64,000 nucleotides of DNA, from NCBI RefSeq assembly GCF_003334385.1, contig NZ_QOWN01000006.1, one strand, 5' to 3'. This document shows, in pieces, positions 57,380 through 57,575 of this stretch; within the stretch, counting starts at the first letter, position 1, and each line of letters starts with the position of its first letter. The notes beneath the pieces are model-generated. The model was not told the DNA's origin. It searched no databases and saw nothing but the letters and a program-made list of their open reading frames with translations. Source of the stretch: Escherichia coli. GTDB lineage: Bacteria; Pseudomonadota; Gammaproteobacteria; Enterobacterales; Enterobacteriaceae. A program made the position numbers and the translations under genes.

Positions 57380-57402
57380 AAAAACCCCGCCGGTGGCGGG
57401 GA
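57380..57402 (-). terminator. Rho-independent terminator of fliC
   Basis: Minus strand: ccccgcc-accg-gcgggg hairpin followed by ttttttc. Confidence 0.8.
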
Positions 57403-57431
57403 AGCACGTTGCTGACAAATTACCATTCATG

Positions 57432-57524
57432 TTGCCGGATGCGGCGTAAACGCCTTATCCGGCCTACAAAAATGTGCGAATTCAATAAATTGCAATTCAA
57501 CTTGTAGGCCTGATAAGCGCAGCG
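57432..57524. repeat. RIP-type element in the fliC 3' UTR
   Basis: ttgccggatgcggcgtaaacgccttatccggcctaca ... gaattcaataaattgca ... ttgtaggcctgataagcgcagcgcatcaggca. Confidence 0.75.
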
Positions 57525-57575
57525 CATCAGGCAATTTGGCGTTGCCGTCAGTCTCAGTTAATCAGGTTAGGACGA

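Follow-up and report, generated by a model that had tools for sequence, protein, structure and literature searches.

Positions 57572 to 57379 on the minus strand of the E. coli DNA analysed here very likely make up the fliX gene of this strain, in other words the 3' UTR of the flagellin gene fliC, acting as in K-12. The DNA is a 64-kb stretch (GCF_003334385.1, NZ_QOWN01000006.1), referred to below as the window. A sequence-only reading of the window had singled out 57380-57575 as a fliC 3' UTR carrying a RIP element, and had named a fliC-derived sRNA, FliX. That sRNA is real: K-12 fliX (b4827) occupies the same position and is 98% identical, and the span singled out agrees with the gene to within 1-3 nt at each end. 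The identification is supported because the position is that of K-12, the published landmarks fall on conserved sequence, a terminator and a promoter are in place, the sequence belongs to a repeat family, and the predicted folds are stable. Neither FliX nor the RIP/BIME-1 repeat is new, and the allele found in the window is an ordinary one; the value of re-identifying it lies mainly in annotation, since PGAP-annotated E. coli genomes label just fliC and fliA in this region. Added here are the observations that a validated sRNA appears to take its seed, its processing site and both of its protective hairpins from a repeated element, and that the same module recurs upstream of many terminators. 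We consider the repeat-supplied seed and processing site, the recurrence of the module and a presence/absence polymorphism among genomes to be of moderate interest.

The fliX gene downstream of fliC

The flagellin gene fliC (57576..59288, minus strand) was taken from the list of open reading frames of the window. Its 570-aa product matches NCBIfam NF005953 (FliC/FljB flagellin) at 729 bits against a cutoff of 619, and its TAA stop codon lies at 57578-57576. The fliA gene (56537..57256) is found on the same strand, 3' of fliC, and fliD (59554..60960) is divergent from fliC, which is the fliD/fliC-fliA arrangement of E. coli. The parental fliC is a different H-antigen allele from that of K-12, whose H48 flagellin has 498 aa. 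A sigma-28-type fliC promoter, TAAAGGTT-N11-GACGATAA, was read directly from the sequence at 59365..59391 (minus strand). The consensus for sigma-28 promoters is TAAAGTTT-N11-GCCGATAA, from which the fliC promoter, as a sequence match only, deviates by two mismatches. The sigma-28 -10 box of fliA, GCCGATAA, was located at 57289-57282, ∼200 bp from the IHF-like core described below. Small ORFs of 22-39 aa in the fliC 3' UTR were rejected as genes, as they fall within repeat sequence and have no support.

In K-12, the NC_000913.3 record annotates an ncRNA, fliX (b4827), at 2001912..2002106, directly after fliC, and the same coordinates are given in Table 2A of Bar et al. (2021; PMC8175672). Melamed et al. 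(2023; eLife 12:RP87151, PMC10578931) reported a ∼200-nt FliX and a ∼100-nt FliX-S, the latter including one REP sequence downstream of fliC. Both species were lost in a fliA deletion and are thus sigma-28-dependent; FliX was sensitive to a 5'-phosphate-dependent exonuclease, hence processed, and it co-immunoprecipitated with Hfq (PMC10578931). FliX represses flagellar synthesis, fliC mRNA and flagellin in K-12, as well as rplC, rpsS and rpsQ fusions, and it forms many RIL-seq chimeras with defined targets. A 3-nt seed mutation, M1, abolished pairing with rpsS, a compensatory change restored it, and a footprint was detected on rpsS. Pairing takes place inside coding sequences and not at ribosome-binding sites. 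FliX-S is the more potent form, and expression of either FliX or FliX-S from a plasmid gives phenotypes; the phenotype of chromosomal fliX-M1 is mild, with motility unchanged (PMC10578931).

These landmarks were transferred to the window. Aligned over 351 nt, the UTR region and its K-12 counterpart agree with a mean column identity of 98%. By homology to b4827, full-length FliX spans 57379..57572 on the minus strand (194 nt): the 5' end, defined by cloning primer SM044, is TTGTAACC... in the oligonucleotide table of Melamed et al. and corresponds to position 57572, 4 nt past the TAA; at its other end the RNA stops, as in K-12, with the final T of the terminator tail (57379). The processed form FliX-S (∼105 nt) occupies 57379..57483 on the same strand. 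Its K-12 start, GAATTTGCAC..., maps to 57483, where the window has GAATTC; primer SM673 is GAATTTGCACATTTTTGTAGGCCGG and the window reads GAATTCGCAC... at this place. The 5' end of FliX-S, G57483, thus falls inside both the L linker and the IHF-like core (57480-57492) of the repeat.

The seed core UUUGUCAGCAA was placed at 57419-57409 (minus strand), with the M1 triplet GCA at 57412-57410; primer SM644 shows M1 as GCA changed to CGT within TTTGTCAGCAACGTGC. The seed, TTTGTCAGCAACGTGCTT, including the GCA triplet, is identical to that of K-12. No variation in the seed was seen among six E. coli strains that differ in their H antigens, and in which flanking repeat positions do vary. Within the sRNA, eight positions are substituted relative to K-12, and the terminator tail is one T shorter; one of the substitutions is at +6 of FliX-S, and four are just 5' of the seed. 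FliX in K-12 and here are alike in position after fliC, in strand, in their 98% identity and in having a sigma-28 promoter, with little or no difference in the seed, the terminator and the 5' region of FliX-S. Given the 98% identity, and with the seed, terminator and promoter all intact, FliX would be expected to be expressed in this strain. No FliX family was matched in Rfam release 15; the only matches there were the repeat-derived ES036 and naRNA4.

FliX resembles FlgO, UhpU-S, MalH, GadF, CpxQ and SroC in being cut from its parental mRNA, in sharing the terminator of that mRNA, and in using the terminator and U-tail as an Hfq module. It differs from these 3'-UTR sRNAs in that most of its body, the seed included, is a copy of a repeated element.

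The RIP/BIME-1 unit in the fliC 3' UTR

After the TAA, the UTR consists of a 16-nt leader, a Y REP, an AT-rich linker, an inverted Z REP, 31 nt and the terminator. The sequence-only reading had placed ∼170 nt between the fliC stop and an intrinsic terminator at 57402-57380, and all elements were recovered within 1-2 nt of where it had put them. In the terminator scan, the intrinsic terminator (57379..57401, minus strand) has the stem-loop CCCCGCCACCGGCGGGG (stem 57401-57385, seven G-C pairs), followed by TTTTTT to 57379. The Y-type REP palindrome, GCCTGATG...GGCCTAC, lies at 57504..57533 on the minus strand and reads TGCCTGATGCGCTGCGCTTATCAGGCCTAC on the RNA strand, and the Z-type REP palindrome, GTAGGCCGGATAAGGCGTTTACGCCGCATCCGGCA on the RNA strand, lies at 57433..57467 on the minus strand. 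The Y REP (GCCTGATG) and the Z REP (GCCGGATG) are inverted relative to each other, and a repeat finder recovered both self-palindromes as well as the Y/Z pair; the two inverted REP palindromes proposed earlier are thus present at 57533-57504 and 57467-57433. The 31 nt between the Z REP and the terminator hairpin look unique at first sight.

The REPs are separated by a 36-nt L linker (57468..57503), AU-rich as RNA, with an IHF-like core. The string given as the core in the earlier reading, gaattcaataaattgca, was found on the plus strand at 57478-57494, and within it ATTCAATAAATTG (57480-57492, plus strand) has one mismatch to the IHF consensus WATCAANNNNTTR, so the IHF-like core between the REPs holds as a sequence feature. 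Such a match is not significant when taken alone, as there are 70 sites with at most one mismatch across the 64-kb window. For the 23-nt linker core, no chance matches are expected (100 shuffles), and the full REP signature occurs in just one other place in the window. The linker is a single unit in which the repeat finder detected no tandem repetition. It matches Rfam ES036 at 57470-57511 (plus strand) with 38.1 bits, the gathering score being 37.6, and its IHF-like core is identical to the ES036 consensus.

According to Ton-Hoang et al. (2012; PMC3333891), BIME-1 is a single pair of y and z1 REPs with a long, well-conserved L linker, which frequently carries an IHF site. In the summary given there, RIP, RIB and BIME-1 repeats go back to Gilson (1991), Oppenheim (1993) and Boccard and Prentki (1993), the last of whom reported that BIME-1 linkers bind IHF and lie at the 3' ends of transcription units. 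The fliC feature shares with RIP/BIME-1 the single Y REP, the long L linker with the IHF consensus, the Z REP, the position at the 3' end of a transcription unit, the membership in a multi-copy family of dispersed repeats, and a conserved outer motif at either side. In the papers searched, the fliC repeat is described only as "REP".

Attention was drawn to the outer motifs by the paralogous artJ-rlmC copy of the repeat, whose similarity to the fliC UTR continues past the REPs at either end. RIP copies were then sampled by searching metagenomes for the linker core, which yielded 120 loci, 94 of them RIP-like, from ∼30 distinct sites. On the Y side, the consensus of the outer motif is TGAGACTGATGACAAACGCAAAACT (∼25 distinct loci); on the Z side, TGAACAAAGCGCACTTTGTCAACAATCTGA was present in 19 of 29 distinct loci. 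The two are inverted copies of each other; they may already be described in the older BIME literature, possibly as the A and B motifs of Gilson. A profile HMM of 154 positions was then built from 24 RIP loci outside fliC and used in an nhmmer search. It matched the fliC UTR over HMM positions 2-151 of 154 (alignment 57555-57407, envelope 57556-57404, 129 bits, E = 2.7e-39), and the alignment runs through tttgtcagcaa with high posterior probability. The extended unit, made up of outer motif, Y REP, L linker, Z REP and outer motif, therefore extends over 57404..57556 (minus strand) by this search. From the family consensus and the HMM alignment, the outer motif on the Y-REP side, here GAGACTGA-CGGCAACGCCAAAT, was assigned to 57534..57556, and that on the Z-REP side to 57403..57432, both on the minus strand; the latter contains the FliX seed, as located with primer SM644.

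We concluded that the feature is, by its sequence, a bona fide RIP/BIME-1, as had been proposed, with Y-L-Z architecture, an ES036 match above the gathering score and the profile match given above, and that the repeat unit is larger than two REPs. As aligned to the profile, ∼153 of the 194 nt of FliX are repeat-derived, and the seed core UUUGUCAGCAA is the Z-side outer motif of the repeat. The fliC copy differs from other RIPs in that its outer motifs have diverged, with one 1-nt gap on each side; the Z-side motif matches at 17 of 30 positions in the window and 21 of 30 in K-12. It also differs in lacking the duplicated flanking hairpin (see below), and in that its Z-side motif serves as an sRNA seed.

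Two Rfam sRNA families touch this region. ES036 (CssrF) is the L-linker match, and in effect models the BIME-1 L linker, so that it will match every RIP; the match at 57470-57511 (plus strand) was rejected as an sRNA gene, since it is antisense to FliX and says nothing on transcription here. The naRNA4 (CssrE) family is a partial match to the Z REP hairpin, well below the gathering score (41.9 vs. 59.5). The Z REP, which may be of subtype z1 or z2, matches in sequence the REP hairpin of naRNA4, a family derived from the element REP325, described as Y-l-Z2, and the partial naRNA4 matches were rejected as sRNAs because they are REP hairpins. With the REP stabilizers of mRNA (e.g., malE-malF) and with SroC, C0362 and C0664, FliX shares REP hairpins in the transcript that act as exonuclease barriers. 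Those RNAs have REP hairpins only, whereas the functional seed of FliX is a non-palindromic BIME-1 outer motif.

Proposed action of FliX and alternative readings

In the mechanism that we favor, transcription would start at the sigma-28 promoter of fliC and end at the intrinsic terminator. Endonucleolytic processing would release the ∼194-nt FliX just past the stop codon, and the ∼105-nt FliX-S would arise from a further cut near G57483, within the AU-rich L linker. Both forms would keep the terminator hairpin and U-tail and thereby bind Hfq; by analogy with other sRNAs, the terminator and U-tail probably constitute the Hfq-binding 3' module. The single-stranded seed (UUUGUCAGCAACGUGCUU), between the Z REP and the terminator, would pair inside the coding regions of fliC and of ribosomal protein genes of the S10 operon, and the pairing would lower target mRNA levels, serving as a late brake on, or negative feedback of, flagellar synthesis. 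The expression, processing, Hfq binding, targets and phenotype in this scheme are those of the K-12 record (PMC10578931).

The repeat may contribute to this mechanism in several ways. Its protective hairpins would cap the upstream fliC mRNA (Y REP) and the 5' end of FliX-S (Z REP), it would supply an AU-rich cleavage site between the two hairpins, and it would supply the seed itself via the outer motif. Stabilization of the upstream mRNA, as suggested in the sequence-only reading, is plausible. RNase E is the obvious candidate for the cut in the L linker, and RNase III is also plausible because a long Y/Z duplex is predicted. At the DNA level, the IHF consensus makes the L linker a putative IHF-binding site. 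RNase E processing and IHF binding at the fliC copy are not documented in the searchable literature, and an IHF ChIP-seq paper (PMC3333857) does not mention the fliC locus.

Folding predictions were made for both RNAs. Full-length FliX folds at -68.4 kcal/mol (z = -3.5 vs. shuffles), and FliX-S, the 3' half, at -45.4 kcal/mol (z = -4.8), the latter as the Z-REP hairpin followed by the seed and the terminator. For the full-length RNA, a single long imperfect duplex is predicted, which brings together the Y and Z REPs as well as the outer motifs and has the L linker at its apex. UUGUCAG pairs there with the 5' CUGACGG (unpaired probability at most 0.07) and is partly free in FliX-S, in which the adjoining AGCA/UGCU is predicted to form a small local hairpin. 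The mean accessibility of the seed is unchanged in the comparison of full-length FliX with FliX-S (0.53 vs. 0.49-0.52). The idea that processing unmasks the seed is thus only partly supported by the predictions, and unmasking, as modeled, can only partly explain the potency of FliX-S in K-12. In duplex predictions, the best site in K-12 fliC, at about +400, has -23.4 kcal/mol and is degraded here to -17.7 kcal/mol in a comparison of computed sites. The top sites differ between the two alleles, and duplex prediction gave no conserved FliX site in this strain's fliC allele.

Other readings of the same UTR were weighed against FliX as an sRNA. The RIP could work mainly at the DNA level, with IHF binding and bending the L linker, which is situated between the very strongly transcribed fliC gene and the promoters of fliA; the repeat would then be an architectural element or a supercoil barrier ∼200 bp upstream of the fliA promoters, and the RNA a by-product. 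This reading draws on the IHF consensus that the linker shares with its family, on the IHF binding and 3'-end location reported for BIME-1 linkers (Boccard and Prentki, 1993, as summarized in PMC3333891), on the discussion of BIMEs as supercoiling barriers (PMC6907758), and on the fliA sigma-28 -10 box (57289-57282) ∼200 bp from the core. We nevertheless find it unlikely: in K-12, point mutations in the RNA seed and plasmid-borne FliX or FliX-S act independently of the chromosomal DNA site, and at least 1091 E. coli genomes without the RIP keep the terminator and the fliA promoter region, the RIP therefore not being required for fliA expression. A DNA-level role is possible as an additional function, and cannot replace the RNA function because of the plasmid-borne and seed-mutant phenotypes in K-12.

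It is more improbable still that the REP pair is a generic stabilizer of the fliC mRNA 3' end, or a trap for decay intermediates, whose fragments have no regulatory role here. REPs do stabilize upstream mRNA and yield stable decay intermediates, as summarized in PMC3333891; the chromosomal fliX-M1 phenotype is weak, and this allele of fliC does not preserve the predicted target site. Against this, the Hfq co-immunoprecipitation, the RIL-seq chimeras and the compensatory rpsS change with its footprint speak for base-pairing activity in K-12, the seed is fully conserved here, and the terminator hairpin alone already protects the 3' end. We give hardly any credence to the remaining reading, an inert selfish repeat that sits in the UTR by chance and is functionless as DNA and as RNA. 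The family is indeed dispersed, with dozens of copies per genome, and roughly one E. coli genome in three lacks this copy, but the K-12 experimental record contradicts inertness, as does a seed that stays invariant across six long-form strains with different H antigens while the flanking repeat positions vary.

Occurrence of FliX in E. coli and other copies of the repeat

To count long UTRs, a match to at least 80% of the 351-nt query was demanded among 5426 complete E. coli genomes. The long fliC UTR with the FliX region was found in 3503 of them (∼65%), and the remaining genomes match the query just from the terminator onward. In at least 1091 of the 5426 genomes, a short UTR of ∼20 nt leads to the same terminator, with neither RIP nor seed; it follows a Salmonella-like fliC end (...LSLLR*) in 863 genomes and a ...LLQG* end in 228. 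Both short forms have CTCAAA before the hairpin, and the terminator hairpin is common to the long and short alleles. In the long form, the leader (16-18 nt) is similar to the short UTR, as would fit the insertion of an extended RIP just upstream of the terminator, the alternative being a deletion. A sizable minority of E. coli genomes thus lacks FliX, and conclusions from K-12 on the coupling of flagella and ribosome synthesis may not hold species-wide.

A T/C polymorphism was detected in the seed at 57415 (UUUGUCAG vs. UUUGCCAG): C is present in 7 of 11 metagenomic fliC-linked copies, and both the window and K-12 have T at this position. When contigs of representative genomes were scanned for exact matches to the seed 20-mer, two MAG contigs and no Escherichia representative were obtained. 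One of the two is E. coli-like and binned as "Collinsella", and the other is a chance match. The polymorphism may explain part of the missing Escherichia matches; a short UTR or an incomplete scan are alternatives, and the outcome carries no information on how the seed is distributed among species. On the former contig, JAIJJM010000281.1 (3.9 kb, from a MAG labelled Collinsella sp.), a fliC 3' end of E. coli type is accompanied by FliX and the promoter region of fliA. The fliC-fliA region of this contig is nearly identical to the window, and the contig is probably a mis-binned Escherichia one.

The repeat itself was found throughout the species. None of the 5426 complete E. coli genomes lacks the linker with the REP edges, for which the median is 11 places; for the Z-REP end with the outer motif, it is at least 26 places per genome. 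A terminator-like hairpin and T-run directly after the Z-side motif, which is the layout of FliX, was seen in 9 of 19 sampled motif-bearing loci. Its clearest example within E. coli, the artJ 3' UTR (the artJ-rlmC spacer of E. coli BLR(DE3)), has the outer motif, Y REP, L linker, Z REP, ...TTTGTCAGCAATCTGA and a terminator; its end reads ...UUUGUCAGCAAUCUGA, then AGCCGC..GCGGCUUUUUU. No ncRNA is annotated in the corresponding region of K-12 (899646-899843), and by analogy the artJ 3' UTR is a candidate FliX-like RNA.

From these observations we tentatively propose, as a possibility that we ourselves regard as doubtful, that FliX is a domesticated extended BIME-1/RIP, which obtained its seed from the Z-side motif and its processing site from the linker, with gain and loss tied to fliC alleles, and that RIP copies upstream of terminators form a latent FliX-like family. 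The parts of this proposal that concern sequence were observed here, and the sRNA action of other copies is a prediction. If it is true, dozens of RIPs upstream of terminators (e.g., at artJ, with UUUGUCAGCAAUCUGA) would be Hfq-dependent 3'-UTR RNAs with related seeds, and E. coli lineages with the short UTR would be without this layer of flagellar and ribosomal control.

Both outer motifs are immediately flanked on the outside, at 9 of the 23 distinct RIP loci, by copies of the same G+C-rich hairpin (∼16-22 nt) in direct orientation (z at least 4.6). These flanking repeats look like a bidirectional terminator hairpin that was duplicated on RIP insertion. The fliC copy has the G+C hairpin on its 3' side only.

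The window holds a second complete RIP/BIME-1 at 10659-10783, Z-L-Y on the plus strand, with the linker core AATTCAATATATTGCAG (nhmmer 136.8 bits, E = 1.1e-41); its linker can be aligned with that of the fliC copy. It lies between convergent ORFs, 9685..10656 (plus strand) and 10821..13268 (minus strand). This copy has the Y-side outer motif and lacks the one on the Z side, since its Z REP directly adjoins the stop codon. The RIP profile also matched REP/BIME sequences at 458-552 (E = 7.5e-11) and at 22545-22594 (E = 3.9e-06), the former being a Y/Z pair with a short linker, BIME-2-like and not a RIP.
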